From positions 16,442-80,441 of the forward strand of contig DAOUAQ010000116.1 in NCBI GenBank assembly GCA_034433375.1: a DNA stretch of 64,000 nucleotides. Direction: 5' to 3'. The notes below the pieces were generated by a model, which was given only the letters and a program-made list of their open reading frames with translations, ran no database searches and was not told the origin of the DNA. Positions 1 to 49,454 of the stretch are shown piece after piece. The stretch's first letter is position 1. Each line of letters starts with the position of its first letter. Position numbers and translations under genes: made by a program. This DNA is from Anaerolineae bacterium (lineage in GTDB: Bacteria; Chloroflexota; Anaerolineae; B4-G1; SLSP01).

Positions 1-837
1 ATCGTTGATAGAAGCGCCCGAGTTGTCCGTGAAGATGATGCGGATAGCAGTCTGTTGGGCAAGTCGGAACTGCCTTATAGCCGCTCTGCTATCACTTTGC
101 CGCTTCGTTCGCGCGGACAGATTCTCGGCGTCATCGAAGCGCACAGCTATCAACTCGATACTTTTGATGCGGAGAGTGTCATTGTTTTACAGACAATTGC
201 CGACCAGGTATCGGTAGCCGTTGATGGTTTACGCCTGTACGCCGAACGCCAGGAAGCAATGGAGAGTCTACAGCGCACCTACGGCGAAGCCACCCGCGCC
301 GCGTGGACTGCGCTATTGTTGGGCCGCGCCGCCGGAGCAGAAGGGTATCAGGTGGAGACCAAAGGTATGACCGCGTTGCCGCCCGCGCCGCCGGCTGCGT
401 GGCGCGCCGATGCCAGGGCGGCCTGGTCACAAGGGCGCGCCGTCGTAGATATGGAGGAGACCGGTGCAGCAGTTTTGGCGTTGCCGATTCGCTTGCGCGC
501 GGAGGTCATCGGTGTGGTTGATGTGAGCAAGCGCAAAGATGCCGGTGATTGGACGCCGGATGAGGTTTCCCAGCTAGAAGAACTCGTCGAGCAGTTGGGG
601 TTGACCCTGGAGAGTTCCCGGTTCTACCAGGAATCGCAACACGCCGCCGCGCGCGAACAACTCTTGCGTGAAATCTCGGAGCGCATTCGGGTTGCTGTTG
701 ACGTGGATTCGGTGATGCGCATTGCCGCCAAGGAAGTCGGGGACGTGCTGCAACGTCCTGTCTTCGTCTATATCGCGGATGAATCCGAAGGTTCAATGCC
801 TCCGGATCAGGTGCTGGGACCGGAAGCATGGTTATGA
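1..837 (+). CDS. 5'-truncated C-terminal part of a multi-GAF sensor protein; frame is open to the window edge
   Basis: Frame 1 is open from nt 1. GAF motifs 'LPYSRSAITLPLRSRGQILGVIEAHS' and 'VLQTIADQVSVAVDGLRLY' are present. It ends with the family tail 'AAREQLLREISERIRVAVDVDSVMRIAAKEVGDVL'. Confidence 0.7.
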   Translation: MVDRSARVVREDDADSSLLGKSELPYSRSAITLPLRSRGQILGVIEAHSYQLDTFDAESVIVLQTIADQVSVAVDGLRLYAERQEAMESLQRTYGEATRAAWTALLLGRAAGAEGYQVETKGMTALPPAPPAAWRADARAAWSQGRAVVDMEETGAAVLALPIRLRAEVIGVVDVSKRKDAGDWTPDEVSQLEELVEQLGLTLESSRFYQESQHAAAREQLLREISERIRVAVDVDSVMRIAAKEVGDVLQRPVFVYIADESEGSMPPDQVLGPEAWL

Positions 838-3704
838 AGGAAGATACAACGATGAGCGAAAACAACGAAATGGCCCGCTTGCTTGGCGCCGGGCAGCAGA
901 AAACCCGTCCCACGCTTGGTTTGCTCACGTATGGGCTTGTTGATACGATCAGTGAAGCGATGTGGCGCGGAGCGGAAGAGGCTGCGCGCGCGCATGACGT
1001 CAACCTGGTCTGCTTCTCCGGCGGCACACTGCGCGATTTTACCGGCGCTACGGTCTCCGCCAATGTGCTGTATGACTTTGTCAGCGCCGAACGTGTGGAT
1101 GGGCTGGTCATCTGGGTGGGGCTGCTGCACCATGTTGATCCCGAAACGGCCAGGGCTTTCTATCAACGCTATGCGCCTATTCCGCTGGTGAGCGTCGGAC
1201 TGCAACTCGAAGGCATCCCCACCGTGACGGTGGACAATTACGCGGGGATGTACAGTGCTGTAGAGCATCTGGTGGGGGGACACGGTTACTCTCGGATTGC
1301 CTTTATTCGCGGCCCCGAAGGCCATGAAGAGGCCGAGGAGCGTTATCTCGCTTATCGGGATGTTCTGGCAGCGCATGGCATTGCCTTTGACCCTGAACTG
1401 GTCACGCCGGGAAACAATCAGCGGTCAGGCGGGGTGAATGCGGTCAATCTATTGTTTGATGAACGGCGTTTGCGTCCGCAAGATGATGTCGAAGCGATTG
1501 TGGCCGCCAACGACAACATGGCTTTCGGCGCGGTGGAGGCGTTGCAGGCGCGGCAGGTTGCCGTCCCGCGCGAGGTCGCCGTGGTCGGCTTCGACGATTT
1601 TGCCGAGGGCCAATACGCGCTCCCCACGCTGACGACGGTTCCGTGGCCGGGATATGCCCAGGGGCGTCAGGCTGTCGAACTGTTAGTGGCGCTCCTGAGC
1701 CACGCCGACGTCCCCGCGTTGACGCGCGTTCCCACAACCGTGGTCATCCGCGAGTCGTGTGGCTGCCTGATCCCGGAGATGGTGCGGGCAGCGGAAGCGC
1801 CTGAACTGCGGCTTGCCGAACCGCGCGCGGCTGAGACTTTCGTCTCGGAGCGCGGTGCGCTGCTGGCCGAGATGACGCAGACCCTGGCGGCGCTTAAGGT
1901 TGACGACGCGCAGTTGGCCGGGCTGGTAGACGCTTTTATGGGCGAGATGGCCGTTTCTCCATCCAGGGGCTTTTTGCCGGCGCTGGAAGCGTTGTTGTGG
2001 CAGACTGTGATCGCGGGCGGCAATGTCAATGCCTGGCACGGCGTCGTATCTACTATGCGCCGCCATATTCTTCCTTATGTGCTGGACAACGGCGCGCGGT
2101 CTCGCGCGGAGAATCTCTGGCAGCAGGCCCGGACTATGATCAGCCATGAAGCGCAACGGGCGCAAGCGCGTCTGGGGTGGCAGGCAGAGAACCAGGCGAT
2201 GGCGCTGCGCTATTTTGCGCAAACATTGATCTCTGCCTCTGAATTGGATGATTTCGCCACCATGGTGCCGCAACAGATTCCATCCCTGGGAATCCCTGGC
2301 TGTTCCATTGCGCTGTTTGAAGACCCCGCAAAACCTGTCAACGCGCATTTGTTGGTGACCCGCGATGGAACGCGACCCCAGGCAGCATCCATTTTCCCCA
2401 CACGGTTGTTACTGCCGGACTCTGTGTGGAATCAGGAAAGCCGTTTCAGCTGTGTGCTCGAGGCGTTGTATATTCGGGAGGCGCAACTGGGGTACGTCCT
2501 TTTTGAAGCAGGGCCGCAGAATGGCAGCATTTACGTCACCCTGCGTGACCAAATTAGCAACGCCTTGCGCGGATTGCTGCTGGTGGAAGAGACCCGCCGC
2601 ACACAACTGGCGCTCCAAAAATCCTATGCCGAAGTGGAGCAACAAGTGGCGACGCGCACGGCTGAATTGCAGCGTGAAATCACCAGCCGCGAGAGCTTGT
2701 ATGAGCGCCGCGCCCTCCAGGTACAGACGAGCACGTTGATCTCCCAGGAAATCGCCGCCGCGCCGGCGTTGGATGAGTTATATCGCCGGGTGGTAACATT
2801 GGTCAAAGAACGCTTTGATTACTATCACGCGCAAATCTTCCGCTACGACCCGCAGTGGCACACCGTCCGCCTGGTCACCGGCTATGGTGAAGTGGGGCAG
2901 AAGATGCTTGAAGCCGGACATTCCATTGATGTGGGCATAGGTGTGGTGGGAACGGCGGCGGAGACCGGAGCAGCCGTCCTGGCAACCGATGTGACGCAGG
3001 ATAAGGAGTGGCGTCCTAATCCCAACTTGCCGGAGACCAAAGGCGAATTGGCGGTGCCCATCAAGTTGCGCGATCAGGTGTTTGGTATCCTGGATGTGCA
3101 GAGCAACCGCGCCAGGGCGCTCACCCTGGATGACCAACTGTTGTTGGAACAACTGTGCGGTCAAATCGCCATCGCTATTGAAAGCACACGCTTGCGCGAG
3201 GAGATGGAAGATCGTCTACAAATGTTGAACATGCTGCAAGCAGCTATGGCCCGCGAGGGGTGGGAGGTGCTGCGAGCCCAGCACCGCGGTCTCAAGGGCT
3301 ATGCGTATGATCAGGGTGTGGTGCAACCTTTGACTCAGGTTCCCTCCGGGGGATATACCGTTCCGGTTGCCGTGCAGCAGGATCAGGTCATCGGGCGCTT
3401 GGGCGTTCAAGAAGACCCGGCGCGGCCCCTCTCGTCAGAAGAACGCGCGCTCCTGGCATCCATATCAGAGCAGGTCGCGTCGTCCCTGGACAGAGCGCGC
3501 TTGTTCGAGGACACCCGCCGGAGCGCCGCGCGCGACCAGCTCATCGGTGAACTGAGCGCGCAGATGCGGGCTTCACTCGATGTTGAGCAAGTGCTGCAAA
3601 CTGCCGTGCGCGAAATGGTCAGCGCGTTGAACTTTGCCAGGGTGGAGGTGCGCCTGGGAACCGTGGAGGCCGAGGCGACTGCGGCGGAGGAGGTCGGCGC
3701 ATGA
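828..3704 (+). CDS. Cytoplasmic LacI/GalR-type PBP type-1 ligand-binding core (no HTH) fused to GAF domains and the family C-terminal tail
   Basis: 958-aa ORF. The N-terminus 'RPTLGLLTYGLVDTISEAMWRGAEEAARAHDVNLVCFSGG...VDNYAGMYSAVEHLVGGHGYSRIAFIRGPEGHEEAEERYLAYRDVL...VVGFDD' matches a LacI-family sugar-binding core. There is no signal peptide, TM segment or HTH. A GAF domain follows ('LVKERFDYYHAQIFRYD...NPNLPETKGELAVPIKLRDQVFGILDVQS'). The stop overlaps the next start (ATGA). Confidence 0.65.
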   Translation: MVMKEDTTMSENNEMARLLGAGQQKTRPTLGLLTYGLVDTISEAMWRGAEEAARAHDVNLVCFSGGTLRDFTGATVSANVLYDFVSAERVDGLVIWVGLLHHVDPETARAFYQRYAPIPLVSVGLQLEGIPTVTVDNYAGMYSAVEHLVGGHGYSRIAFIRGPEGHEEAEERYLAYRDVLAAHGIAFDPELVTPGNNQRSGGVNAVNLLFDERRLRPQDDVEAIVAANDNMAFGAVEALQARQVAVPREVAVVGFDDFAEGQYALPTLTTVPWPGYAQGRQAVELLVALLSHADVPALTRVPTTVVIRESCGCLIPEMVRAAEAPELRLAEPRAAETFVSERGALLAEMTQTLAALKVDDAQLAGLVDAFMGEMAVSPSRGFLPALEALLWQTVIAGGNVNAWHGVVSTMRRHILPYVLDNGARSRAENLWQQARTMISHEAQRAQARLGWQAENQAMALRYFAQTLISASELDDFATMVPQQIPSLGIPGCSIALFEDPAKPVNAHLLVTRDGTRPQAASIFPTRLLLPDSVWNQESRFSCVLEALYIREAQLGYVLFEAGPQNGSIYVTLRDQISNALRGLLLVEETRRTQLALQKSYAEVEQQVATRTAELQREITSRESLYERRALQVQTSTLISQEIAAAPALDELYRRVVTLVKERFDYYHAQIFRYDPQWHTVRLVTGYGEVGQKMLEAGHSIDVGIGVVGTAAETGAAVLATDVTQDKEWRPNPNLPETKGELAVPIKLRDQVFGILDVQSNRARALTLDDQLLLEQLCGQIAIAIESTRLREEMEDRLQMLNMLQAAMAREGWEVLRAQHRGLKGYAYDQGVVQPLTQVPSGGYTVPVAVQQDQVIGRLGVQEDPARPLSSEERALLASISEQVASSLDRARLFEDTRRSAARDQLIGELSAQMRASLDVEQVLQTAVREMVSALNFARVEVRLGTVEAEATAAEEVGA

Positions 3705-6655
3705 ACGCTCTGTTGACGAACGAGACTCTGCAAGGGCTGGCGTGGTTTGCCGGGTTGCTGGAGCTGGTCTTGGCTTTATATGTGCTGCTGCTTAACACCC
3801 GACACACGGCCAACCGTCACGTCAGCTTCCTGCTGTTCATCTTTGCCGTCAACAGCCTGGCCCTGGGCGCGTTGTTTGGCGCTACGCGTGTGGCGCAAGC
3901 TGTCCTGTCAACCCTGTTCTTGGCGGCGACTTCCGACCCGGCTAAAGTTGGCCTGCTCTTGACGGCCGTGATTCTGCTCAGCCCGCAATGGGTGCAGGGG
4001 CGCTGGCGCTGGCTAGGATGGCTATTGTATGGACTCGTCTTTTTACCGGTGGTTTTGACGGCTATTGATGCCGTCGGGCACACTGGCTTGTGGTACAGTG
4101 GCTTTGATGCAGCGAGTTATACCGGCGGCTACATCGCCGGTGGTTCTTACGAAGCAGGGCGGGTGGCGCACATCGTGCGGCCATTCTACGTGTATTTTCT
4201 CTCGTTATTGCCGTTTATACCGCCGCTGTGGGTCATTGCGCATCGGCAGACGCACCGCACGCTGCGCCAGTTAGCCTGGATGCTGTTGATTACACAGGTG
4301 ATCACCGTTGCTGTGCAGTTTGGGCTGCGTTCTTTCATCGGTTCGGGGGCAACGACCATTGTCACTTCAACCGCTTTTGCCTTGGGTTACGCCTACACCG
4401 CATTCCAGCAAATGCTTTCCGAACGCCGCGCCCAGCGCGGGCGCTTGCGGCCCCGTTTGACTGCGCTGACGTTGGTGATCGCCATTCCCATCCTGATCGC
4501 GCTCGTCGCCTTTATGCTCCTTCGCTCCTCCACGGTCATTGAAACTCAGACGGTCGAGACGTTGAGCGCGACCAACCGTCTGCTGGCGACCAGTACGCGA
4601 CAGTGGCTTGATTTCAACGTCAAAGCGTTGCGTCAATTGGTGATGCAGCCAGATATTCAGGGGATGGACGCTGTTCTACAAAAGCCGATCCTGGCAGCGA
4701 TGGATGCGGTTCACGAAAACATCTATCTGGTCAGCACGACCGATCTCAACGGTATGAATGTGGCGCGCAGTGATGACGCCGCGCTGACCGATTATAGCGA
4801 CCGTGCGTGGTTTCAGCAAGTACGGGACGGCGCTTCACTTGCGTATCAGGTCACGATCGGGCGTACAAGTGGAAAACCGGCGTTGATTGTCTCGCTGCCG
4901 ATTCTTGATCCGGCGGGGAATCTCGTCGGCGTCGGTATGTTTGCCTCCAACCTGGATCAACTGTCCAGCGAGATCGCCGTCACCCGTTTTGGGCAAACGG
5001 GCGTGACGTATGTGGTGGACGCGAAAGATCGCATTATCGCCCATCCCGACCCCGCGTTCTCTGCTTCTATCGTTGATATTCACGATTCCCCTGTGGCGCA
5101 GAAGTTGCGTGAGGGAGAGGCAAAGCAGTTCCGCTACATGGATGCTGCGGGCCGGCAGTGGCAGGCTTATGTGGATGTGTTGGACAACGGGTGGGGTATC
5201 ATCGCGCAGCAGGAATATGCGGAGTTGCGCAATCCACTTGAGCGCCTTGCCCGCATCGGCGTGCTCGCGTCGGTTCTGGGGGGGCTGTTGCTTGGCGGAT
5301 TGACCTTCTTGACGATGCGCCAGGCGCTTGCGCCCATTGATACCCTGACCGCAACCGTGACCGCGATTACGGAGGGCGATTTAACCCGCACTGCCCCGGT
5401 GGTGAGCGAGGACGAGTTCGGCGTTCTGGCGCGCACCTTCAACAGTATGACTGCGCAACTGCGTGAGTCCATTGACACGTTGGAGCAGCGTGTGGCTTCC
5501 CGCACCCTCGATCTGCAACGCCGTTCCGCCTATCTGGCAGCTTCGGCGGAGGTCAGCCGCGCGGCGGTCTCGATCTTGGACCCCGACGTGTTGATCCGCC
5601 AGGTGGTGGATTTGATCCGCGAGCGTTTTGATCTTTACTACGTCGGCCTGTTCCTGGTGGATGAAACGACGACCTGGGCCGAGTTGCGTTCCGGCACAGG
5701 CACGGCGGGGCAGGCCATGTTGGCGCGCCAGCACCGCATCCGCATCGGTGAAGGCATGATCGGGTGGAGCATCGCCAACGCCGAAGCGCGCGTCGCGTCG
5801 CGCGCCGAGGTTGACGAAGTGCGCCTCGTCAACCCGGAACTGCCGGATACGCGCTCTGAGGCAGCTTTGCCGTTGCGCTCGCGCGGGCAAGTGCTCGGCG
5901 CATTGTCCGTGCAGAGCACGCACCCAGACGCCTTCGATCCGGAGAGTGTGAGCGTGTTGCAGACGATGGTGGATCAGGTGGCGGTGGCCATTGACAACGC
6001 GCGCTTGCTGGCGCAGGCGCAGACCGCGCTGGAAGCAGAACGCCGCGCCTATGGCCTCGCTTCGCGCCAGGACTGGAGCCGCCTGGCCCGCGTCCGCGCC
6101 GAGTCGGGTTACATCGGTGTGCGCCAGGCCGTGGCTACAACCTCGGACGCCACGGAAGTGGCGCTGCTCGTGGCGCAGGGCGAATGGAGTCCCGAGATGC
6201 GCGTCGCGCAACGAACCCGGCAGAGCGTCACGGGGCAGCACGAGGGGATGCCGACGCTCGCCGTTCCTATTCTTGTGCGCGAGCAAGTGGTGGGCGTGTT
6301 GAATTTCAGCAAAAGTGAGCAGGCCACCGGTCTTACGCCAGGCGCGACCTGGACGCAGGAAGAAGTCACCCTCCTTGAGGCGCTCGCCGGGCAATTGGGG
6401 CAGGCGTTGGACGCCGCCCGGCTGTACCGCCAGACGCAGCTTCGCGCAGCCAGGGAAGGCGCTATCCGCGAAATCACGGATCAGATGCAGCGCGCGACGG
6501 ACATAACGGCGCTGATGCGCATCACAGCGCAAGCCTTGAATCAGACGCTCGGCGGTTCGCGCGTCTATGTGCGCCTGGGCGCTGATACGGGCGCCGGCAC
6601 GCGGACTGTCGCCAGTGAGCAGACGGATGGAGGAAACCATGGCGATGCGGAGTAA
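3701..6655 (+). CDS. Multi-TM membrane sensor: Cache-like periplasmic domain, HAMP, GAF domains and the family tail
   Basis: 984 aa. The N-terminal ~280 aa are hydrophobic. A Cache-like segment follows ('DRAWFQQVRDG...LIVSLPILDPAGNLVGVGMF...TYVVDAKDRIIAHPDP'), then HAMP ('TEGDLTRTAPVVSEDEFGVLARTFNSMTAQLRES'), then GAF ('LIRERFDLYYVGLFLVD...NPELPDTRSEAALPLRSRGQVLGALSVQS'). Confidence 0.7.
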   Translation: MNALLTNETLQGLAWFAGLLELVLALYVLLLNTRHTANRHVSFLLFIFAVNSLALGALFGATRVAQAVLSTLFLAATSDPAKVGLLLTAVILLSPQWVQGRWRWLGWLLYGLVFLPVVLTAIDAVGHTGLWYSGFDAASYTGGYIAGGSYEAGRVAHIVRPFYVYFLSLLPFIPPLWVIAHRQTHRTLRQLAWMLLITQVITVAVQFGLRSFIGSGATTIVTSTAFALGYAYTAFQQMLSERRAQRGRLRPRLTALTLVIAIPILIALVAFMLLRSSTVIETQTVETLSATNRLLATSTRQWLDFNVKALRQLVMQPDIQGMDAVLQKPILAAMDAVHENIYLVSTTDLNGMNVARSDDAALTDYSDRAWFQQVRDGASLAYQVTIGRTSGKPALIVSLPILDPAGNLVGVGMFASNLDQLSSEIAVTRFGQTGVTYVVDAKDRIIAHPDPAFSASIVDIHDSPVAQKLREGEAKQFRYMDAAGRQWQAYVDVLDNGWGIIAQQEYAELRNPLERLARIGVLASVLGGLLLGGLTFLTMRQALAPIDTLTATVTAITEGDLTRTAPVVSEDEFGVLARTFNSMTAQLRESIDTLEQRVASRTLDLQRRSAYLAASAEVSRAAVSILDPDVLIRQVVDLIRERFDLYYVGLFLVDETTTWAELRSGTGTAGQAMLARQHRIRIGEGMIGWSIANAEARVASRAEVDEVRLVNPELPDTRSEAALPLRSRGQVLGALSVQSTHPDAFDPESVSVLQTMVDQVAVAIDNARLLAQAQTALEAERRAYGLASRQDWSRLARVRAESGYIGVRQAVATTSDATEVALLVAQGEWSPEMRVAQRTRQSVTGQHEGMPTLAVPILVREQVVGVLNFSKSEQATGLTPGATWTQEEVTLLEALAGQLGQALDAARLYRQTQLRAAREGAIREITDQMQRATDITALMRITAQALNQTLGGSRVYVRLGADTGAGTRTVASEQTDGGNHGDAE

Positions 6656-10886: not shown

Positions 10887-12243
10887 GATGGATCAGGAAC
10901 AAGCCCGGCGCGTCCAGATGACTCGGGCAGTCATACAAGTTTCGACGGCCGCTGCGGCTGTGATCCTGATCGTTTTTGCGAATTTGTGGATCGCCGGATC
11001 CCAATTTGCGGGTCGGTACGTCGCAGTGGTGGCTCTGGGATTCCTCATGCTCGGTGGTATTAGTTTATGGCTGATTCGCCGCCGCCACTTGAATCCAGCT
11101 ATTACAGTTTACATATTTGCATTGATTGCCGGTCTGACGATGGCTATCTATCTCCTGGGTGGTGTGACCGGACCGGTAACAGTTGGTTTTGTGATGGCGG
11201 CGGTAATTGTTGGATTGATTGGCGGCGCCCGATCGTTGAGTCATGCCGCCATCACCATGGGGGTCATTTATTTGACGATGGCGATTCTGGAGGCTACCCA
11301 CGTGCTGCATCCGCCCCGGATACCCGATACGTCCGTCTGGTTGATCGAGATTGTTTTCTTTTTAGCGATATTTGTGGTGACAGCGTTGGTGGCGAGAACA
11401 TTTGTCAACCAGAGTGGGCGCGCTATGGCTGAGGAGCAGCAGCGCAGCCTTGAACTGGCTCAGGCCAGTCGCCAGGCCGAGGAATTGGCGCTGACCGAGC
11501 GCGAACTGCGTGAACGAGAGGCGCACTCGTCGGCGCACCTCCGCGAGACTGTCGCCGGCTATGCTGACTATCTGTCGCGTGTGGCTGCCGGAGATTTTGC
11601 GGCGCGCGTGGATGTGGGCATGTTGGAAGAGGACGTCGAAGGCGACCGTGAACTGCACGCGCTGGGTGAATATCTTAACTCGACAGTGGATGCGCTGGTT
11701 GCTGCACTGACCCAGGCCCAGGAAGCGCAGCGGCGCTATACAGAACAGGCATGGAAAACTTTCATAGAGTCGGGGCGTGTGCAGCCAGGATTTGCCTACC
11801 GGAAAAATCAAATCACACCGGACGCCGAGTGGCTACCGCAGATGACCCGGGCTGTGGACAGCGGAGCGCCCGTAGTGCAGGATGCGGGTGCGGGCGTGCC
11901 GTTGGTCGTCAACCGGCAGATCGTGGGCGCTATCGGCGGCCAGCACCCCGATGGACGGCCCTGGACCACAGAAGAGTTGGCTTTGATCGAAGATGTGACC
12001 GGGCAGCTCGCGCAGACGATTGAAAGCCTGCGGTTGTTCGACGACGTGCAGCGTCGCGCCGCCCAAGAGCAGGTGATCGGTGACGTGACGGCGCGGATGC
12101 GCGAGTCACTGGATATGGAGACCGTGCTCAGAACCGCGGTGGATGAGATGCGCCAGGCGCTAGGCCTGGAAGGCGTCATCGTGCAACTGGCAAGGCCAGA
12201 AACTGTGCGTGACGAGCTGGACACGCAGCAACCGCCGGTATAG
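10858..12243 (+). CDS. Membrane protein (4-5 TM), HAMP-like/coiled-coil region, short GAF-like domain and the family tail (type B)
   Basis: The ORF runs 10810..12243. The probable start is ATG 10858 ('MMQTQSSPVEM') with 'GAAGGGGGAA' upstream. It overlaps the preceding gene by 29 nt. Internal motif 'LGEYLNSTVDALVAALTQAQEAQRRY' is present. The tail is 'QRRAAQEQVIGDVTARMRESLDMETVLRTAVDEMRQALGLEGVIVQL'. It is paralogous to 31880..33283. Confidence 0.65.
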   Translation: MMQTQSSPVEMDQEQARRVQMTRAVIQVSTAAAAVILIVFANLWIAGSQFAGRYVAVVALGFLMLGGISLWLIRRRHLNPAITVYIFALIAGLTMAIYLLGGVTGPVTVGFVMAAVIVGLIGGARSLSHAAITMGVIYLTMAILEATHVLHPPRIPDTSVWLIEIVFFLAIFVVTALVARTFVNQSGRAMAEEQQRSLELAQASRQAEELALTERELREREAHSSAHLRETVAGYADYLSRVAAGDFAARVDVGMLEEDVEGDRELHALGEYLNSTVDALVAALTQAQEAQRRYTEQAWKTFIESGRVQPGFAYRKNQITPDAEWLPQMTRAVDSGAPVVQDAGAGVPLVVNRQIVGAIGGQHPDGRPWTTEELALIEDVTGQLAQTIESLRLFDDVQRRAAQEQVIGDVTARMRESLDMETVLRTAVDEMRQALGLEGVIVQLARPETVRDELDTQQPPV

Positions 12244-12261
12244 GTGAGGAGGAACGTGAGT

Positions 12262-14025: not shown

Positions 14026-14086
14026 ATGAAGATAATTTGTGAAAACGGGTGAATCTCTTGAAATTATTCATCAATTATTCGATTTT

Positions 14087-14110: not shown

Positions 14111-14203
14111 GTCAAGAAGGACTTTTTGCAGTAGACTCAGCACCTGAAAGTGAAACGACGCAGAAGTGAAACGGCGCATAGCAGGGATCGTGGAGGCTTC
14201 GGA

Positions 14204-16462: not shown

Positions 16463-16478
16463 CAGGTGGGAGAGCGTT

Positions 16479-28743: not shown

Positions 28744-28779
28744 TGAGAAGTTTGTGGAGATACAGCAAGGAGACCTCCG

Positions 28780-29139: not shown

Positions 29140-29147
29140 GGGGGACT

Positions 29148-40698: not shown

Positions 40699-40796
40699 GG
40701 TGGAGGACCGGAAACCGGCTGGACAGCGCGTCGCAGTGGTTCTCTGGCAGGATTTGAGTGTATTCGATCCGCTGGTTATGGGAAAGGTTATGTAAC

Positions 40797-43700
40797 ATGA
40801 CGATGATGGACACAGAAAAAAGTAAGGACCACGGGACTCAGGGGGTGGGGGCCTTGCGCCAACAGATGACCGCGCTATCACGCAAGGATGGGGGGATTTT
40901 CCTCCAATCTATGTTGGACGCCATCCCTAACCCGATTTTCTACAAGGATATGGCGGGCGTTTATCGCGCCTGCAATCGCGCCTTTGCCGAGGACGTTCTC
41001 GGCGTGCCGGGTGAACGTATCATCGGGCGGACTGTCTATGACCTGGCGGAATCTATGCCTCAAGCCCTGGTGGAAACCGATCATCCCAAAGACCTGTTGC
41101 TGCTGCGCGCGGCTGGCTCTGACGTTTACGAGACGGCGTTATGTTACGCGGACGGCATTTTCCACGACGTCGTCATCCACAAAACCACCCTGGCCGCGTC
41201 AGATGGTCGCATTGACGGTGTGGTGAGTGTGCTGCTCGATGTCACCGACTTCAACAAGTCGGAAGAAAAGAGCACGATGCTGCTTGAGTTGACCCAGGCC
41301 GCCATCGCCGAAACCGAGGTGCTCTATCACCTGAGCAGTTCCCTCATCGCTTTTGACGATCTGACGGGCCTTTTGCGGGCCGTGGTGGATGGCGTAGCGG
41401 ATATGCTGCTGGCGAACCAGGTGATATTGACGACGGTGGACCTTGAGCAGCGCAAAGTCATCCACTTCGTCAAGGGAGGCGTCGGCGTTGCCGGCGTTGC
41501 GCCGGAGATGTCCTTCGATGAACTGTGGAATGGTTTGAGCGGCGCGGCGTTGCGCAGCCTGAAGCCGATCCTCTCTACCAAGAGCACCCCCGACCCGCGC
41601 GAAAGCCCTGAAATCCAACGGCAGCTTGGCGAAGCGAGCATCGGCTCCGTGGTGGTCGTTCCCTTGCGGTACCAGGAGCGGACGTTGGGCACGTTAGCGG
41701 CTGTCAATCGTCTGGAAGACCCGGATTTCACGAAGAAGGATGTGAGCTTGATGGTGGCGATGGCGAACCAGGTCGCGGCTGCCGTCGAAAGCGGACATCT
41801 CTTCGCCAAATTGCAGCATACGGCGACAACTATGAGCACCGCTGCGGAAATCTCACAGGCGTCCTCGTCAATTTTGGATCTGGACGAATTGCTGCCGCAA
41901 GCCGTGGATCTCATCCGCCAACGCTTTAACCTGTACTACGCGGGCATTTTCCTGGTGGATGACAGCGGCGAGTGGGCCGTCCTTAGCGCGGGAACCGGCG
42001 CGGCGGGACGCGCCATGTTGGCTGAAGAGTACCGTGTGAAGGTAGGCGGCGAGTCGTTGATCGGCGCTTGTGTGGCGACCGCCTCGCCCTGCATGGCTCA
42101 GGATACGACATCAGCGCAGCGACGCATGGCGCTTGTGTATTTGCCGCACACACAGTCGGAGTTGGCGCTGCCGATGATTAGCCGTGACGCGACGATCGGC
42201 GCGATGACCGTGCAATCGGTGCTGGCAGGCGCTTTCACCGCCGAGGACGTCACGGCGCTGCAAATCATGGCGAACCAATTGGCGAACGCCATCCAGAACA
42301 TCCGGCTGCTGGAGAAAGTACGCACTTCCCTGGCGGAGACCGAGGCGCTCTATCAAACAGCGCGCGCGATCAGCGGCGCGCGCTCCTTCGAGGACATCCT
42401 TGAGGGGCTTTTTGACACAATCACGTTTATGCCTCTGAGCGAGGCGGTCTTGCACGTCATTGTCGCGCGCGATCCCCTCAAGGTGAACTCGTACACGACG
42501 ACCCGCGTCGGCGGTGAGCGACAGACGCACGTGACTTACACGACGTCCGTTGACGATGTCGCGCCACTGCTGGATGATCCGCAGCAGTTCGTCTTCTATG
42601 GCGACCCAAAAGATGAAGACGCCGCCATACCTGAACCGGCGCGCGCGCGCATGGCGCAGATGGGCTATCGTTCGACGCTGACCACCGGCTTGACGGCGCA
42701 CGGCGAACTGGTGGGGTTCCTCACGTTTAGCAGCGCCGCGTCGCAGCACATCATCGCGGCGCGCGCGGTGCAGGGCGCAGTGCGCGCTTTGGCCGATCAG
42801 ATCGGGGTTGTGCTGGATAACTTCCTGCTTGGCGAGCAGACACGCCTGCGCGCTGAACAACTCGAAACATTAAGCGTGATCGAATCCGCGCTTTCGGAGA
42901 CCAACACCGAGGCCGAGATACTGGACGTGTTTGTCCTGGCTGTGCGCGCTACTGCCACCCTCACGGCCTGGCTGGTGTACACCGACTCCGCCGCCGACGG
43001 CGTGGTGACGACGCAGATTGTGGCTTCCTGGCATAATGGGGCCATTCAGCCCGCTGACCCGCTGCTCAACCGCTCGCTTTCCCCGAACACTTTCCCTATG
43101 TCGCGTCTGTGGATGGGCGATCTGGATCAAATTTCTTACACCTATGATCTACACCAGGACAGCCCGATTGACGCCAGGGCGCGTGAATGGGCCATTGAGC
43201 ATGGCTTTGTGTCGGTGATGGTGCTGCCGATGTTGAGCGGCGGACACTTGCAAGGGGTCATCGTGCTCAACTGGGCTGAACCCTACGTTTTGTCTAGCAC
43301 CGAACAATTCCTCTTGCGGCGTCTGGTGCGCCCGACTGTGGCGTTGCTCTCGCGGCGACGCGCTTACCTTGCCGAGGAGGCTGCGCGCGCCGAAAATGAG
43401 CGCCGCGCGATGCAGTTCCAGACCGCGGCAGAAGTGGCCCACGCCGCCTCCTCCATCATTGACCTGGATGAATTGTTGCCTCATGCCGTGAATTTGCTCC
43501 GTGAGCGTTTCGACCTCTACTACGTTGGTGTTTTTCTGGTTGATGAAACCAGAGAATGGGTCGCGTTGCGCGCTGGTACGGGCGAGGCTGGCCGCATTAT
43601 GTTGGAACGCCAGCATGGTTTTACCGTCGGCGGCGGTTCGATGATCGGGCGGTGTGTGGCTGAGGCCACGCCGCAGATCCCCGAAAGCGTAGATACTGCG

Positions 43701-46700
43701 GTGCGTTACGTCAACCCGCTCTTGCCCAACACGACGGCGGAAATCGCTTTGCCGCTGGTCAGCCGCAACCAGATGATCGGGGCCATGTCAATCCAGTCCA
43801 GCAAAGTGCGCGCCTTCTCCGAGACCGACATCACCATCTTGCAGACAGTGGCTGACCAGTTAGCCAACGCGATTCAGAACGCCCGGCTGTTCGATCAACT
43901 GAATACCTCGCTGACCGAAAGCGAAATGCAGACAGAAGTGAGTCTGGCGATCAACGAAGCGCAATCGGTTGAAGAGATCGTGCGCGCGGCGGCGCAGGTA
44001 GGTGAGTTTATCGGCATGGCCGGCGTCTCCTTGCGCCATTTCACGCGCTGGGATGAGGCCGGGCGGCCTGTGAGCCAGGATGTTTACAGTTTGTTGACCC
44101 GTGAAGCCGGCGAAGAATTCCGCGTTATGGAGAACATCGTGATTAACCAGGAGCTTTTAGTCTGGATCCTCGCCGACACACGCCGGATGCATGTCAGCAG
44201 AGATTTGGTCACCGACATGGCCTTGCCTGAGGCTATTCGCGCCAGCTTGCTTGCGCAGGGCTATAACAGTATGATCTGCACGCCGCTCGGCACGCGGAAC
44301 CGTTTGTTGGGATTCCTGGTCCTGTTTGATACACGTCCGGTGGAGGAGTTCCCAGCCCGCTATATCCAGGTTTTTGTGCGGACGCTCATTGATCAGGTTT
44401 CGACGGGATTGGATCGCTACACGCTGCTCCGCGAAAGCGAACGGCGCGCCGCGCGAATGGAGACGGCTTCTGGAATCGCCCGCCATGCCGCGTCAATTCT
44501 GGATCAAGAGACTTTGCTCTCCGAAGTTGCCGGACTGATTCGTGAGCGTTTCAACTTATATCACGTGGGCATGTACATGGTGGACGATTCCGGACAGTGG
44601 GCGGTCTTGCACGCTGCTTCCGGCGACATTGGCCGCGCGCTGCTGGCGCAAGGCCAGCGCTTGCAGGTAGGCGCGGGTTCACTGGTGGGCGCGTGTGTGT
44701 CCGCCGCTGCCCCATACAGCGTCTTGAATCTGGACGAGGCATCACGCCGTCTCTATGCCGACGCCGTCACCGCTACCGGCTCGGCCATCGTGTTGCCGCT
44801 GATCAGCCAGAACGTCGTCATCGGTGCGGTGGCTATGCATTCGCAGGAAGCGGCCGCTTATTCTAAAGAGGACATCACCATCTTCCAGACGATGGCCGAC
44901 CAACTGGCGACGGCTATCGGCAACGCGCGCCTCTTTGCGCAGTCACAGACCAGCCTTGAAGAGTTGCAGCGGGTGCAGCAACGCTATGCCGTGGAAATGT
45001 GGGATGGCTACGTCGAGCAGCGGGACGTTTTCGGCTATACCTACGATCTGAACGAAGTCGCTCCATTGCCTGTTGAGCAATCCAGTGCCCCGGCTGATCT
45101 TTGGGGCGGCAAGCTCTTCATGCGCAGCGGTGAAGAGGATGGCGATGGCGCGCTGTTGGTCGCGCCTTTCGATGTCAGGAGCGAGCCGGTGGGCTTCCTG
45201 AGTTTTGAGGAACCCGGCGCGTCGCGGACGTGGACCGAAGACAATGTCGCCGTCATCGAGGCCGTCCGCGAGCAGCTTGCCCTGGCCCTGGAGAACCGTT
45301 TGTTGATTGACCAATCCCAAAATGCACTGCGTGAAGCCCGGCAGCGTGAGCGCGAAGTTCGCTTCCTCCAGGGGGTCGCCGCCTTCCTCAATGCGACGGA
45401 GAGCATCGTGGCCTCTCAAAACGAATTGCGGGAGCACCTGCAGGCATTCATCCCGGTGGACTCGCTTTCTATCACCGGGTATGACGCCAATCGTATGTTG
45501 CACTTTTTGGGGGAGCAGACCGGCAACGTGCTCAACCTGGAGAATTGGGCGGGGGTCGAATTGGGAAAAGGAACGGGATACACACTGGCGGCTGAGACGG
45601 GCGAACCTTTGCTGCACGATGACATCCGCCAGACCCCGCGTTTCTGGGAAGATGAGCACTTGATTGTGGCGGGAATGGTCGCGCGCGCTGTCATGCCCTT
45701 GCGGTTAGGCGCGCGCATCCTGGGGACGTTGAACCTGGAGAGCCGCCAACCTGGCACATTCTCACGGCCTGAGCTGATGCCCATCCTCTCGCAGGTGACG
45801 GCGCAAGTCGCCTCGGCGATGGAGCGCGCCAACCTGCTGCAACGCGCCCAAGAGAGCGCCGGCGAGTCGCGCACCCTCTACGAAGCCACCAGCGCGCTGG
45901 CCGAAGCTACCAGCTACGAGACCGTGCTGCGCGCCATCGTCGGACACACCATTCTGTCGGAGTATGCCTGGGCCGAGATTGCGATGTTCATTGTTGATCC
46001 CGAAACCGGCGCAGAACAGAGTTTGTTGGAAGTCGTCAGTTCGTGGAGCAGTCAGTCCTCTCTTGCGCCCCTGGAAGTCGGGCGGCGGATGTCGGTCGCG
46101 GAGTTCCCGGCGCTGCAACGCCTCGCGCCGGGGCAACAACTGTACATCTGCGAGGACATCAATATGGCGCTGGACATGGATCCGTCGGTCCGCAACTTCT
46201 ATCTTGAGCAGGGCGTGCAGGCATTTGTGATGGCGCGCCTTTCTGCAGTCGGCGTCACCAGCGGCGGCGGAATCGGCGTGCTCCAGATTCGATTCTCGGA
46301 GCCATACCACCCATCGGAACAGGACGTGCGTCTCTACAACAACATCGCCGATCAGGCCGCTGTCGTGCTCTCTAACCAGAAGCTGCTGCGGCTGTCTGAG
46401 GCGCGCACCGAGCAGTTGACCGCCGCCGTGGACTTCGCGAACCTCGCCACGGCCCTCTCGGAGCGCGAAGATTTGCTCAAGCGATCGGTAGATTTCTTTA
46501 AGACGCGCTTTGGTTTCTACTATGTGGGCATTTCGATGCTGGACGAGCAAGGGGAGTGGGCCGTCTTGCAGGCCGGCACCGGCGATGTCGCGGAGACGCT
46601 GCTGCGTATGGGGACGCGTGTGCGTGTTAATGCCAGCTCGATGGTCGGTTGGAGCATCGTCAACGACCGACCACGCATCGCCCAGGATGTAACGCGCGAC

Positions 46701-49454
46701 CCGCTATACTTTGGAAACCCCTTGCTGCCGGGCGTGCAATCGTCCATTGCGTTGCCCCTCAAGAGCCGTGGGCAGGTCAACGGCGTCCTCACCATCGAGA
46801 GCGACCGGCGCTTCGCGTTTACCGGCGAAATCGTCTCGACACTCGAACTTATGGCGACGCAACTGGCGAATATGATCGAAAGCGCCGACCTGTACGACCG
46901 TTCGCAAAGCTCGCTGGCCGAGACGCGGATGCTCTATCGCATCGCGCAGCAGATTACCGACGCGCTCACGGTCGAGAACGTCTTCAAGGCTGCGGTCGAA
47001 GGTATCTCGCAGCGTCCTGAACCGGATTGGATCGTCGCCGCGCAACTCGAACCGCGTCAGTCGCCGACGCACCTGCGCATCGTGTGGTCGTGGAGCCGCG
47101 ACGGCGCGCCCATCCCCTTTGAGGCGTATCCACTCGCTCAGTTCCCTCGGCTGGCGGCCGTGTTGCGAGATGACGAGAGTTATGTCACCCCCGATGTGAC
47201 CCAAGACCCTCAGGTGGACGAATTCTTCCGCACCGTCTTCGGACAACTGGGGCTGCGGGCGATGGCGGCTTTCCAGTTGCGCATCTATGGCGTGCAATAT
47301 GGCGCGGTGATGATTCACAGCCGCAAAGCGCGGGAGTTTTCCAACACGGAATTGCGCTTCTACGAAAACGTATCTCGCCAGGCTTTCGTGGCCTTGCAGA
47401 ACATCAACCTCGTCGAAGAGACGCGCGAGCAGGCGGAACGGCGTGACATCCTCAATGAGGTGCTGCGGACTGCCTCAAGTTCGCTGGACAGGCTCTCGTT
47501 GATGCGCGACGTCGGCAGAGTGATCGCCACCCGTCTTGATCGCCCTCTTATGATGTGGAACTGGGATAATCAACTGCTCACCTCTGTATCGGTGCATGAA
47601 GCAGGGGGAAAGCTGGTCGGAGGCGGCGATATGACGCCACCCTTGACCCGCGTTGACGCTCCTTTGCTCTACCAGGTGATTGATAAGATGGCCCCGGTTT
47701 CCCTTGACTTTGCAGACGACCGTGGCCTGATGCTGAAGCGCACGTTGACTTACTTCAGCCAACCCCTTGTGGAAGGCTACGCAGTGCCGTTGCGGGTGCG
47801 CGGGACGATTTTTGGCATTATGGTTCTGGGACGCCAGGAAGAACATGCTTCCTTCAACGAAGAGATCAAGGACTTCATGCGCACCGCCGGCGTCAACGTC
47901 AGTGTGGCATTGCAGACGGCGGTTCTTTACCAGGAGGCGCAAGACACAGCCATCAAACTCCAGGAAGTTGATAAGCTCAAAAACCAGTTCATGGCGAACA
48001 TGTCCCATGAACTGCGTACCCCGCTCAACTCCATCATCGGGTTCTCACGGGTGATTTTGAAGGGCATTGATGGCCCGTTGACCGAAATGCAAAAGACGGA
48101 TCTGACGGCGATCTACGACAGCGGACGTAACCTGCTGGAATTGATCAACGACATTCTGGACATTTCCAAAATTGACGCCGGTAAGATGGAAATGGTTTTC
48201 GAGCCGACCGATTTGCAGGAAATCGTGCGCGGCGTCGTCACCACGATAGCCGGGCAATTGAAGGGCAGCCCTGTAGAGCTTTTGACGGATCTGCCCGATC
48301 AGTTGCCGGTGGTTCTGGCCGATGGTCGCCGCATTCGCCAGGTGTTGACCAACATGGTGGGCAACGCGGTGAAGTTCACCGAACACGGCTACATCAAGAT
48401 CGCGGCTTCGTATGACAGCTATCAGGTTGTGATGAGCGTCGAAGACACCGGCATCGGCATCCCCTACGATCGTCGTCACGCCGTTTTTGAAAAATTCGAG
48501 CAGGTGGACTCTTCTTCGACGCGGCGTTATGGCGGCACCGGCCTGGGTTTGCCTCTCAGCCGTGAGTTTGTCAGACTCCACGGCGGGGATATGGATTTTG
48601 AGAGCGTCGTTGGCGAAGGCTCGCGGTTCTACTTTTGGATTCCCATCGGCGGGCCGTCCTCCAAACGCGAAGAGGAAGACAAGACTGTACAATCACCTGA
48701 CACCCATACCATTCTCACCGTTGATGATGATGAAGGCGTCATCACCCTCTTCCAGCGTTACCTGGAAAAGCAGGGCTATAAGGTCGCCGGTATGACGACC
48801 GGCGAGGGCGTTGTCGAAACGGCCAAGCGCCTGAAGCCCTATGCCATCACGCTGGATGTGATTATGCCCGGCAAGGACGGCTGGCAGATCATCCAGGAAT
48901 TGCGCGCCGATCCAGAAACCCGCGACATTCCCATAATCGTGTGTTCCATCATGAGTGATGCGGACAAGGGACTGAGCATGGGCGTTGCCGATTACCTGGT
49001 AAAACCGGTCACAGAGCAGGATTTGCTCGACGCGCTCGTGCATCTGGAGCATCCAGGTGCCGCAGGTCATGTGTTGATCGTGGATGATAACGCGGATGAC
49101 CGTAAACTGCTGCGGCGCATCCTTGAAGATGCCGGCTACAAGGTCGAGGAAGTGACGGGCGGCGCGGAAGCCATCAACGCCATCCATACAAATCCACCCA
49201 ACCTGATCATCTTGGACTTGATGATGCCGGACGTAGATGGCTTTGCGGTCTTGGAGAATCTCAAGATGACGCCGTTGACCCGCGATATTCCCGTGGTCGT
49301 GGTGACGGCTAAAGAATTGGGTAAATCTGAACGTGAGCGCCTGCAACAGCGCGTCGAGGCGTTGCTGCAGAAGGGCCTGTTTGACCAGAACCAATTGCTC
49401 AACGATGTGCTCTCTGCCCTCGAACGTTTGAAGGAGACCAAACACGCGCGCTAA
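40797..49454 (+). CDS. Giant hybrid sensor histidine kinase: PAS, ~11 GAF domains, HisKA, HATPase_c and two receiver (REC) domains
   Basis: The ORF runs 40758..49454, 2898 aa. The likely start is ATG 40797 ('MTMMDTEKSK'). The N-terminal PAS is 'LQSMLDAIPNPIFYKDMAGVYRACNRAFAE'. Many GAF units are present ('LIRQRFNLYYAGIFLVDDSGEWAVLSAGTG', 'LLRERFDLYYVGVFLVDETREWVALRAGTG' and others). The H-box is 'MSHELRTPLNSIIGFS'. The ATPase region is 'VGNAVKFTEHGYIKI...EDTGIGIP...GGTGLGLPLSREFVRLHGG'. REC1 is 'ILTVDDDEGVITLF...AITLDVIMPGKDGW'. REC2 is 'VLIVDDNADDRKLL...LIILDLMMPDVDGF'. Confidence 0.8.
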   Translation: MTMMDTEKSKDHGTQGVGALRQQMTALSRKDGGIFLQSMLDAIPNPIFYKDMAGVYRACNRAFAEDVLGVPGERIIGRTVYDLAESMPQALVETDHPKDLLLLRAAGSDVYETALCYADGIFHDVVIHKTTLAASDGRIDGVVSVLLDVTDFNKSEEKSTMLLELTQAAIAETEVLYHLSSSLIAFDDLTGLLRAVVDGVADMLLANQVILTTVDLEQRKVIHFVKGGVGVAGVAPEMSFDELWNGLSGAALRSLKPILSTKSTPDPRESPEIQRQLGEASIGSVVVVPLRYQERTLGTLAAVNRLEDPDFTKKDVSLMVAMANQVAAAVESGHLFAKLQHTATTMSTAAEISQASSSILDLDELLPQAVDLIRQRFNLYYAGIFLVDDSGEWAVLSAGTGAAGRAMLAEEYRVKVGGESLIGACVATASPCMAQDTTSAQRRMALVYLPHTQSELALPMISRDATIGAMTVQSVLAGAFTAEDVTALQIMANQLANAIQNIRLLEKVRTSLAETEALYQTARAISGARSFEDILEGLFDTITFMPLSEAVLHVIVARDPLKVNSYTTTRVGGERQTHVTYTTSVDDVAPLLDDPQQFVFYGDPKDEDAAIPEPARARMAQMGYRSTLTTGLTAHGELVGFLTFSSAASQHIIAARAVQGAVRALADQIGVVLDNFLLGEQTRLRAEQLETLSVIESALSETNTEAEILDVFVLAVRATATLTAWLVYTDSAADGVVTTQIVASWHNGAIQPADPLLNRSLSPNTFPMSRLWMGDLDQISYTYDLHQDSPIDARAREWAIEHGFVSVMVLPMLSGGHLQGVIVLNWAEPYVLSSTEQFLLRRLVRPTVALLSRRRAYLAEEAARAENERRAMQFQTAAEVAHAASSIIDLDELLPHAVNLLRERFDLYYVGVFLVDETREWVALRAGTGEAGRIMLERQHGFTVGGGSMIGRCVAEATPQIPESVDTAVRYVNPLLPNTTAEIALPLVSRNQMIGAMSIQSSKVRAFSETDITILQTVADQLANAIQNARLFDQLNTSLTESEMQTEVSLAINEAQSVEEIVRAAAQVGEFIGMAGVSLRHFTRWDEAGRPVSQDVYSLLTREAGEEFRVMENIVINQELLVWILADTRRMHVSRDLVTDMALPEAIRASLLAQGYNSMICTPLGTRNRLLGFLVLFDTRPVEEFPARYIQVFVRTLIDQVSTGLDRYTLLRESERRAARMETASGIARHAASILDQETLLSEVAGLIRERFNLYHVGMYMVDDSGQWAVLHAASGDIGRALLAQGQRLQVGAGSLVGACVSAAAPYSVLNLDEASRRLYADAVTATGSAIVLPLISQNVVIGAVAMHSQEAAAYSKEDITIFQTMADQLATAIGNARLFAQSQTSLEELQRVQQRYAVEMWDGYVEQRDVFGYTYDLNEVAPLPVEQSSAPADLWGGKLFMRSGEEDGDGALLVAPFDVRSEPVGFLSFEEPGASRTWTEDNVAVIEAVREQLALALENRLLIDQSQNALREARQREREVRFLQGVAAFLNATESIVASQNELREHLQAFIPVDSLSITGYDANRMLHFLGEQTGNVLNLENWAGVELGKGTGYTLAAETGEPLLHDDIRQTPRFWEDEHLIVAGMVARAVMPLRLGARILGTLNLESRQPGTFSRPELMPILSQVTAQVASAMERANLLQRAQESAGESRTLYEATSALAEATSYETVLRAIVGHTILSEYAWAEIAMFIVDPETGAEQSLLEVVSSWSSQSSLAPLEVGRRMSVAEFPALQRLAPGQQLYICEDINMALDMDPSVRNFYLEQGVQAFVMARLSAVGVTSGGGIGVLQIRFSEPYHPSEQDVRLYNNIADQAAVVLSNQKLLRLSEARTEQLTAAVDFANLATALSEREDLLKRSVDFFKTRFGFYYVGISMLDEQGEWAVLQAGTGDVAETLLRMGTRVRVNASSMVGWSIVNDRPRIAQDVTRDPLYFGNPLLPGVQSSIALPLKSRGQVNGVLTIESDRRFAFTGEIVSTLELMATQLANMIESADLYDRSQSSLAETRMLYRIAQQITDALTVENVFKAAVEGISQRPEPDWIVAAQLEPRQSPTHLRIVWSWSRDGAPIPFEAYPLAQFPRLAAVLRDDESYVTPDVTQDPQVDEFFRTVFGQLGLRAMAAFQLRIYGVQYGAVMIHSRKAREFSNTELRFYENVSRQAFVALQNINLVEETREQAERRDILNEVLRTASSSLDRLSLMRDVGRVIATRLDRPLMMWNWDNQLLTSVSVHEAGGKLVGGGDMTPPLTRVDAPLLYQVIDKMAPVSLDFADDRGLMLKRTLTYFSQPLVEGYAVPLRVRGTIFGIMVLGRQEEHASFNEEIKDFMRTAGVNVSVALQTAVLYQEAQDTAIKLQEVDKLKNQFMANMSHELRTPLNSIIGFSRVILKGIDGPLTEMQKTDLTAIYDSGRNLLELINDILDISKIDAGKMEMVFEPTDLQEIVRGVVTTIAGQLKGSPVELLTDLPDQLPVVLADGRRIRQVLTNMVGNAVKFTEHGYIKIAASYDSYQVVMSVEDTGIGIPYDRRHAVFEKFEQVDSSSTRRYGGTGLGLPLSREFVRLHGGDMDFESVVGEGSRFYFWIPIGGPSSKREEEDKTVQSPDTHTILTVDDDEGVITLFQRYLEKQGYKVAGMTTGEGVVETAKRLKPYAITLDVIMPGKDGWQIIQELRADPETRDIPIIVCSIMSDADKGLSMGVADYLVKPVTEQDLLDALVHLEHPGAAGHVLIVDDNADDRKLLRRILEDAGYKVEEVTGGAEAINAIHTNPPNLIILDLMMPDVDGFAVLENLKMTPLTRDIPVVVVTAKELGKSERERLQQRVEALLQKGLFDQNQLLNDVLSALERLKETKHAR

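Follow-up and report, generated by a model that had tools for sequence, protein, structure and literature searches.

An array of at least 49.5 kb of output-less GAF sensor genes ending in a hybrid histidine kinase in an Anaerolineae bacterium, and related arrays in other Chloroflexota

The 64,000-nucleotide stretch of DNA analysed here (the window; positions 16,442 to 80,441 of contig DAOUAQ010000116.1, from Anaerolineae bacterium assembly GCA_034433375.1) is occupied from base 1 to base 49454 by an unbroken + strand series of 21 genes, as judged from a listing of open reading frames (ORFs) and from Pfam. Seventeen of them (g01-g16 and g18) encode GAF-domain sensors that end in a common tail and have no output domain, which we call T proteins; the others are a binding protein (g17), two small STAS-like proteins (s1 and s2) and a hybrid histidine kinase (g19). 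Judging by gene content and gene order across genomes, the best explanation of this locus is that it represents most of one copy, minus the 5' end, of a conserved Chloroflexota operon type. The conserved layout consists of two receiver (REC) genes and a kinase, followed by n T proteins with partner binding proteins (and a STAS pair in one subclade), and finally a hybrid kinase. The T proteins themselves form one paralogous family in which shuffled inputs are mounted on a constant C-terminal end, as the domain assignments support.

Because the window starts inside g01, whose reading frame is open at the edge, the array must be at least 49.5 kb long; on its 3' side, after 49454, it is followed by unrelated genes on both strands. 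Its genes are given below, with GAFa denoting the GAF subtype 'LYYVGLFLVD...LPDTRSE...', PBP a periplasmic-binding-protein-type domain and TM a transmembrane segment.

g01, 1..837, + strand: 3' part of a T protein, cut by the window edge; Pfam GAF; C-terminal module with tail at 607-789
g02, 828..3704, + strand: cytoplasmic LacI-type PBP core (Peripla_BP_1/3), GAFa, reduced GAF and tail (Pfam GAF); no TM; tail 3486-3677
g03, 3701..6655, + strand: multi-TM, dCache_1, HAMP, GAFa, reduced GAF and tail; tail 6407-6589
g04, 6567..10886 (likely start 6639), + strand: LacI-type PBP, GAFa, two PAS, GAFa, reduced GAF and tail; tail 10647-10826
g05, 10810..12243, + strand: minimal T protein with 5-TM N-terminal module, coiled region, reduced GAF and tail, no GAFa; tail 12019-12204
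g06, 12244..14025, + strand: shared multi-TM module (three TM by hydropathy), GAFa, reduced GAF and tail; tail 13750-13932
g07, 14150..16462, + strand: extracytoplasmic ABC_sub_bind PBP, TM, GAFa, reduced GAF and tail; tail 16262-16441
g08, 16308..18218 (likely start 16479), + strand: MASE11 membrane module, GAFa, reduced GAF and tail; tail 17997-18191
g09, 18221..19939, + strand: reference T protein with multi-TM, GAFa, reduced GAF and tail (AlphaFold2 models); tail 19703-19900
g10, 19785..21626 (likely start 19923), + strand: architecture as g09; tail 21405-21587
g11, 21705..24419, + strand: multi-TM, dCache_1, HAMP, GAFa, reduced GAF and tail; tail 24222-24398
g12, 24429..26234, + strand: architecture as g09; tail 25935-26120
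g13, 26182..28743, + strand: soluble, with PAS, GAFa, two PAS, GAF and tail; tail 28480-28659
s1, 28747..29139, + strand: small STAS/SpoIIAA-like protein; PF11964 at 22.8 bits, below the 25-bit cut-off
s2, 29109..29504 (likely start 29148), + strand: small STAS/SpoIIAA-like protein; PF11964 at 26.6 bits
g14, 29545..31890, + strand: soluble, with a two-copy N-terminal repeat of about 58 residues, divergent GAFs and tail; tail 31669-31845
g15, 31862..33283, + strand: minimal T protein, paralogue of g05; tail 33089-33271
g16, 33339..35123, + strand: multi-TM, GAFa, reduced GAF and tail; tail 34893-35075
g17, 35129..36217, + strand: stand-alone secreted binding protein, weak ABC_sub_bind (PF04392, 23.8 bits), no GAF
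g18, 36217..40698, + strand: large T protein with TM, periplasmic loop, TM, HAMP, about six GAFs and tail; tail 40477-40659
g19, 40758..49454, + strand: 3'-terminal hybrid histidine kinase of 2898 residues, with PAS, 8-13 GAFs (four of them GAFa), HisKA, HATPase_c and two REC

An earlier note, made from the letters of the window, had placed 22 genes, all on the + strand, up to 49454 and had counted 19 GAF-domain proteins among them. The co-directionality stands, with a probability of about 1e-6 for 21 genes oriented at random, while the gene number is corrected to 21 and the GAF proteins to 18 (the 17 T proteins and g19). Most neighbours were said to overlap or to lie less than 20 nt apart, and we found this at 14 of the 20 junctions (overlapping or at most 20 nt), the widest gap being 124 nt. 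Shine-Dalgarno-like motifs precede most of the gene starts. All minus-strand ORFs lie within + strand genes that carry recognised domains and were treated as shadow ORFs. Two gene pairs share a reading frame, g05/g06 with a single stop codon between them (12241-12246) and g13/s1 with one stop and one sense codon (28741-28749); both junctions probably reflect tight packing, with the likely starts a few codons downstream. The locus contains no structured RNAs or tRNAs, and a PADLOC scan of the window proteins gave no hit, by which a defence system was rejected.

No output domain (kinase, cyclase, GGDEF/EAL, HD-GYP, HTH or other) was identified in g01-g18 by Pfam, NCBIfam or PADLOC, and HisKA, HisKA_3, HWE and HATPase_c are all absent from the 17 T proteins in the Pfam and NCBIfam scans. 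The proposal that the genes ahead of the terminal kinase lack any recognisable output thus survives, also when the 17 tails alone are scanned against Pfam at E<=10, a search that returned no match, HisKA included. The canonical outputs of the array are all found in g19, in agreement with what had been read from the letters: HisKA (PF00512, 70.5 bits, residues 2408-2475, with the H-box MSHELRTPL in the sequence), HATPase_c (PF02518, 93.5 bits) and two receiver stretches (PF00072, 144.7 bits). The number of GAF stretches in this protein is 8 by Pfam and 13 by the local profile.

The GAFa subtype had been taken as the feature common to all the GAF proteins. With local profiles, it is full-length in 13 of the 17 T proteins and present in four copies in g19; g05 and g15 lack it and consist of a membrane module, a coiled region and the C-terminal module with its reduced GAF and nothing else, g14 has only partial matches, and the GAFa content of g01 cannot be judged at the window edge. 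What all 17 T proteins have, by iterated local profiles and alignment, is a C-terminal module made of a reduced GAF and a tail of about 55 residues, and on this sequence evidence we take that module, rather than GAFa, to be their common denominator. The tail ends 3-37 residues ahead of the stop codon in all 17. It is also the best-conserved stretch of the module, with a mean column identity of 50% versus 33% for the C-terminal module as a whole, its commonest residues being TQRRAAREQLxxEITxxIRxSLDxExVLxTAVxExxxALxLxRxxVRL.

Ahead of this constant end the inputs vary, and most T proteins are membrane-anchored. LacI-type PBP cores are found in g02 and g04 (both cytoplasmic), an extracytoplasmic ABC_sub_bind domain in g07, dCache with HAMP in g03 and g11, PAS in g04 and g13, and MASE11 in g08, while a common multi-TM module without a domain assignment is carried by g05, g06, g09, g10, g12, g15 and g16. 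These are nutrient-binding kinds of input that chemoreceptors carry too. The PBP, dCache-HAMP and PAS inputs named in the earlier note are therefore borne out by Pfam and MASE11 is added to them; the 'poly-HAMP' input ascribed to g14 is not, because neither Pfam nor the local HAMP profile matches it. The N-terminus of g14 (29545-29960) instead contains two copies of a repeat of about 58 residues (...GDxDVxxEVPEGVxxLxxLAVGIxMxxDDIRDM...) that resembles the second half of HAMP without being recognised by Pfam HAMP or the local HAMP profile. Within GAFa, the loop NPxLPDTRSE is highly conserved on reading the sequences, and a regular-expression search found no NKFDE motif of the cyclic-nucleotide-binding type in the 18 GAFa domains.

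When the tail profile was compared with 1.84 billion representative proteins (50%-identity clusters), 13,159 matched at E<=1e-3 and 5,772 at E<=1e-10, and the top matches were giant multi-GAF proteins in which the tail sequence is repeated internally, up to 13 times, between GAFs. Against the sequences of the PDB, the tail aligns with the N-terminal helix and beta1 of phytochrome- and cyanobacteriochrome-type GAFs, and with the inter-GAF junction in 6oap; in the solved members of the phytochrome type, only the N-terminal helix/beta1 and C-terminal elements align. The tail is also homologous to the start of GAFa in g19. Given its internal recurrence in multi-GAF proteins and its alignment to the GAF N-terminal helix and beta1, the tail is, as far as sequence comparison tells, an inter-GAF junction helix plus the first 35 or so residues of a GAF (its first helix and strand) serving as a chain terminus.

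AlphaFold2 models of g09 (pLDDT, the predicted local distance difference test score, 87 and 84) place helices of 44, 52 and 46 residues between the domains, the first leading into GAFa in the cytoplasmic part, the second joining GAFa to the reduced GAF and the third running from there to a cap helix. The reduced GAF is modelled as five short strands and one helix, and the tail as a long helix, a short helix and an extended, unpaired beta1-like segment. The best structural matches of the model are the tandem GAFs of PDE2A, PDE5A and CyaB2 (1mc0, 3ibj, 3lfv and 1ykd) and bacteriophytochrome modules, every one of them a regulator that works as a dimer. In a direct-coupling analysis of 392 sequences (effective number 322), the tail couples to itself only, as a compact helix-helix-extended unit. 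In terms of the GAF profile, the reduced GAF matches the last two thirds and the tail the first 40 positions. A circularly permuted GAF, with the tail supplying alpha1-beta1 in cis, was considered and discarded, because AlphaFold2 leaves the segment unpaired and the couplings skip the reduced-GAF sheet. A degenerate dimerisation and histidine phosphotransfer (DHp) domain or H-box was likewise rejected, since no HisKA is found at E<=10 and the [ST]xx[IL]Rx[ST]L likeness is 8 residues out of register relative to real kinases. ANTAR, HTH or other known effectors were set aside as there is no Pfam match.

To place the window among related arrays, we mapped 71 other loci with the local profiles, 68 of them from a C-terminal-module scan of species-representative genomes and three from the look-up that gave a 79%-identical g09 orthologue; the 68 come from about 45 metagenome-assembled genomes (MAGs) of Anaerolineae, Thermoflexales/Thermoflexia and unclassified Chloroflexota. 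All of the tail-bearing ORFs in these loci (451 of 451) are on the anchor strand, and in 96% of them no more than 40 residues separate the tail from the stop codon. Each locus of 19 kb or more contains 5-10 T genes, with a median of 8 per 20-kb locus. Scattered homologues had been named as the finding that would speak against one clustered system, and in the related genomes the genes remain clustered, on one strand and associated with kinases. Co-directionality is kept even where other arrays contain occasional unrelated inserts, among them a Uma2-family endonuclease, a ParA/MinD-like ATPase, a VTT-domain membrane protein and a methyltransferase (inserts at L038 12103-12756, L025 13180-13980 and L054 14863-16106 in other MAGs).

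Array ends seldom fall inside the 20-kb loci. Where a 5' boundary is visible (8 of 8), it is marked by a GAF-HisKA-HATPase kinase, preceded by two single-domain REC genes in L041, L050 and L053, and all three visible 3' boundaries (L038, L064 and the window) are hybrid kinases. The idea that the array would funnel into one kinase must be widened, since its relatives also start with two receivers and a HAMP-GAF kinase. By their domain content, the kinases in the related loci are of the HisKA type, not CheA. As an independent test, metagenome contigs were scanned with the first 5' receiver as anchor, counting as informative those with at least 2.5 kb of downstream sequence (n=37). A co-directional kinase and/or T/GAF gene follows in 36 of these 37 and a T or GAF gene in 35. 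The genes upstream are of mixed orientation, so that the start of the array is marked by the receiver pair.

Some of these loci have features of their own. L067 (JAGPEO010000064.1) is labelled as a Phycisphaerae MAG, all others being Chloroflexota, which could be due to mis-binning or horizontal transfer. L008 and L062 (DAOUGD010000126.1, 89.7-155 kb) are array segments lying 24 kb apart on one 204-kb contig, which implies either that one array extends over about 65 kb or that two arrays are neighbours. In several MAGs, arrays are spread over two or three contigs, which suggests tens of T genes per genome.

Two kinds of gene that the earlier note had left unintegrated recur in the arrays as conserved components, namely the STAS-like pair and the stand-alone binding proteins. 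The proteins s1 and s2 (28747-29504, between g13 and g14) have about 120 residues each and are 49% identical to each other. A search with s2 found 31 homologues of 53-94% identity, named STAS/SEC14 domain-containing protein, and the block g13-s1-s2-g14 is also present in related MAGs, a Thermoflexus sp. bin (L058) among them, with the g14 orthologues always following the STAS pair. Because just 31 homologues were found, the pair appears to be confined to a narrow subclade, as an accessory with a conserved position in its arrays. No HATPase_c_2 or RsbT-type kinase was identified in the window by Pfam. The binding protein g17 is 25% identical to the PBP part of g07 and is probably the ligand-binding partner of g18; together, g17 and g18 resemble a split form of the fused PBP-sensor g07. 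Secreted stand-alone binding proteins (ABC_sub_bind, Peripla_BP_6 and NMT1) also make up most of the other genes inside related arrays, where they lie just ahead of membrane T proteins or of the terminal kinase (L016 16091-17125, L064 10632-11894 and L050 14884-16803).

The array seems to be ancient, with each member maintained. Paralogues in the window are only 31-49% identical to their best paralogue, compared with 63-85% identity of most of them to orthologues that occur in conserved order in other MAGs, from which we conclude that the paralogues are old and individually kept. Weaker best matches (36-52%) were obtained for g01, g02 and g16-g19. The DNA repeats between paralogues are 60-80% identical and confined to conserved motifs, and this low identity rules out recent amplification or gene conversion. 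The homologues of g09 fall into more than 4600 clusters at 90% identity, named only 'GAF domain-containing protein [Anaerolineae bacterium]'; one orthologue, 79% identical, is found in a similar array that includes the STAS pair.

On the features observed so far (domain content, the shared C-terminal module, the conserved layout and the bracketing by kinases and receivers) we base a tentative mechanism. The reading to which we give the most weight, although we hold it with slightly less than even confidence, is that the T proteins are co-sensors which dimerise along a helical spine and modulate the kinases at the array ends, thereby setting how far the two receivers are phosphorylated. That the T proteins are functionally tied to the neighbouring two-component proteins is the reading best supported, because the layout is conserved and the T proteins lack outputs of their own. 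As in tandem-GAF regulators and phytochromes, the T proteins would pair in parallel along an unbroken helical spine, and binding of a ligand at the variable input would send a signal down this spine. In the predicted transmitter, one long helix joins a full GAF to a reduced GAF, and another leads from there to a short helical cap that finishes in the unpaired beta1-like segment. Its non-catalytic GAF-plus-tail end could contact the kinases encoded at both ends of the array, and possibly other T proteins, with kinase contact tuning the phosphorylation of two CheY-like receivers. Stand-alone binding proteins would hand their ligands to neighbouring T proteins, and the array as a whole probably feeds many nutrient signals into one phosphorelay. 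Beyond gene order, this reading gains support from the GAFa tree, in which the GAFa domains of the 3' hybrid kinases, including g19, interleave with those of T proteins.

A bolder version, which we regard as doubtful, is that the T proteins build, together with the flanking kinases and the receiver pair, a supramolecular sensory complex at the membrane that would be peculiar to Anaerolineae and Thermoflexia. Dozens of silent sensors would then co-assemble through their GAF-plus-tail ends, with the beta1-like segment docking in trans, and jointly set one phosphorelay, much as chemoreceptor arrays or the stressosome do but on a spine of GAFs.

Several results weigh against a mechanism of this kind. 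In the GAFa tree, the domains of the 5' kinases group separately from those of the T proteins, which disfavours simple GAFa-GAFa pairing with these kinases. Dimerisation, kinase contact and the direction of signal flow are what we infer, and genomic association with shared domain subtypes is the whole basis for the link to the kinases and for hetero-oligomers. Neither an Hpt domain nor an effector-bearing receiver was observed, and some receiver-anchored arrays have no kinase directly after the receivers. The loci studied are the best matches to g09-like proteins, a choice from which distant, solitary T genes would escape. For g01, only relatives on short contigs were found and no orthologue on a long one, so the 5' end of the window array was not recovered. 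That the array is an operon is suggested by gene spacing only, and promoter and terminator scans within it gave counts equal to the shuffled expectation, being uninformative and uncalibrated for this phylum.

Some of these points would also suit a different explanation, in which every T protein is an independent sensor that acts on its own partner or small molecule through its GAF, the clustering and the nearby kinases having arisen by tandem duplication of an ancestral GAF kinase gene and not marking a shared pathway. We consider this unlikely, though it is the strongest of the competing explanations. Besides the separate clade of the 5' kinases and the reliance of any contact among T proteins, or between them and kinases, on gene association and domain subtypes, it would account for the differences in array content among close relatives (L001 has no counterparts of g04-g08), and the GAFa loop NPxLPDTRSE might bind a ligand or partner common to the sensors. 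It sits poorly with strict co-directionality and tight packing in spite of paralogue identities of only 31-49%, and with the kinases or receivers at every visible boundary, to which the receiver-anchored search added arrays in all but one of the informative loci. Judging by what is established on the insulation of kinase paralogues, independent and insulated sensors would be expected to diverge at this end. Here the transmitter end is the part best conserved across old paralogues, which argues for a shared partner rather than insulated pathways.

We consider it improbable that the C-terminal module is a new effector, whose basic QRRAARE helix might bind nucleic acid or a second messenger and make one-component regulators of the T proteins. 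The strong conservation of the tail, its folding on itself as a compact unit in the coupling analysis and the lack of a match to any known family would all be expected of such an effector. Its recurrence as a junction inside giant multi-GAF proteins, its alignment with solved GAFs and its homology to the start of GAFa in g19 nevertheless favour a structural junction over a dedicated effector, and the membrane anchoring of most T proteins would be awkward for DNA binding. Finally, the T proteins stop some 35 residues into what appears to be a further GAF and have a GAF-to-output junction helix like that of kinases, as would suit pseudogene-like debris left by the decay or truncation of histidine kinase or multi-GAF genes. 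Such an origin is highly improbable and effectively refuted by the conservation pattern, as 468 intact ORFs (451 in the other loci and 17 in the window) all stop at the same point, with a strongly conserved tail, orthologues mostly 63-85% identical across MAGs and no broken frames seen.

Returning to T proteins as modulators of the flanking kinases, such arrays may resemble chemoreceptor, stressosome and RetS-type systems in their working but appear to be members of none. Like PDE2A, PDE5A, PDE6, CyaB2 and the GAF-PHY part of phytochromes, T proteins have two GAF-type domains on long helices that would form a dimeric spine. In those proteins a catalytic output (phosphodiesterase, cyclase, kinase or GGDEF) always follows in the chain, whereas in T proteins the chain finishes with the junction helix and cap; moreover, the NKFDE motif of tandem GAFs that bind cyclic nucleotides is lacking in their GAFa, and their second GAF is reduced. 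The chemotaxis system of methyl-accepting chemotaxis proteins (MCPs), CheA and CheY offers a parallel in its paralogous sensors with shuffled inputs (dCache, PBP partners, PAS and HAMP), its conserved non-enzymatic end, and its kinase with CheY-like receivers. However, Pfam finds no MCPsignal (PF00015), CheA, CheW, CheB or CheR in the locus, the coiled-coil hairpin of MCPs is replaced by a GAF-based end, and the kinases are of HisKA type with sensor domains of their own.

In the stressosome, too, paralogous sensors (RsbR paralogues, with RsbS and RsbT) combine variable N-termini with a conserved C-terminus and are thought to co-assemble on one kinase, and small STAS-like genes are present here. 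Yet the stressosome sensors end in STAS and the T proteins in GAF-plus-tail, most T proteins are membrane proteins, and s1 and s2 score close to the PF11964 threshold (22.8 and 26.6 versus 25 bits). RetS and LadS acting on GacS provide the example of a non-phosphorylating sensor that modulates a bona fide kinase by direct contact. RetS-type proteins keep DHp and catalytic and ATP-binding (CA) domains and pair through DHp. T proteins have neither domain, and up to 17 or more co-sensors would be present per array.

The known kind to which these loci belong would thus be two-component signalling, the new part being a large, operon-encoded array of GAF-based co-sensors. Among open-access papers we found no description of such arrays; the layout appears widespread in uncultured Chloroflexota yet undescribed in the literature searched. 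The family is large, with at least 5,772 clusters at 50% identity carrying the tail, and its members bear no annotation beyond 'GAF domain-containing protein'. Wastewater, anammox, sediment and hot-spring communities are rich in Anaerolineae and their relatives, most of which are uncultured, and to our knowledge it is essentially unknown how they sense their surroundings. If our reading of T proteins as co-sensors is true, the arrays would join chemoreceptor arrays and the stressosome as a third arrangement in which one kinase is wired to many interchangeable sensors, here with a different fold. They would further account for the many sensors without outputs in these genomes, and would constitute a natural library of plug-in inputs on a common transmitter, useful for sensor engineering.

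Downstream of the array, a near-consensus promoter-like sequence, TTGACA-16-TACAAT (49469-49496), directly follows g19 and is itself followed by an AGGAGG motif. An ORF of 86 codons at 49560-49820 contains CxxCxxCxxxCP and probably encodes a small 4Fe-4S ferredoxin, judging by this motif. An inverted repeat is found after this ORF at about 49852-49888, and 49469-49890 is the lowest-GC stretch of the window. Farther on, dnaN (61742-63163) is found downstream of an O-antigen-ligase-like gene, not of dnaA. GC skew is positive in 30 of 32 2-kb bins over the 64 kb and the cumulative skew rises without a switch, so that no replication origin is evident in the window.

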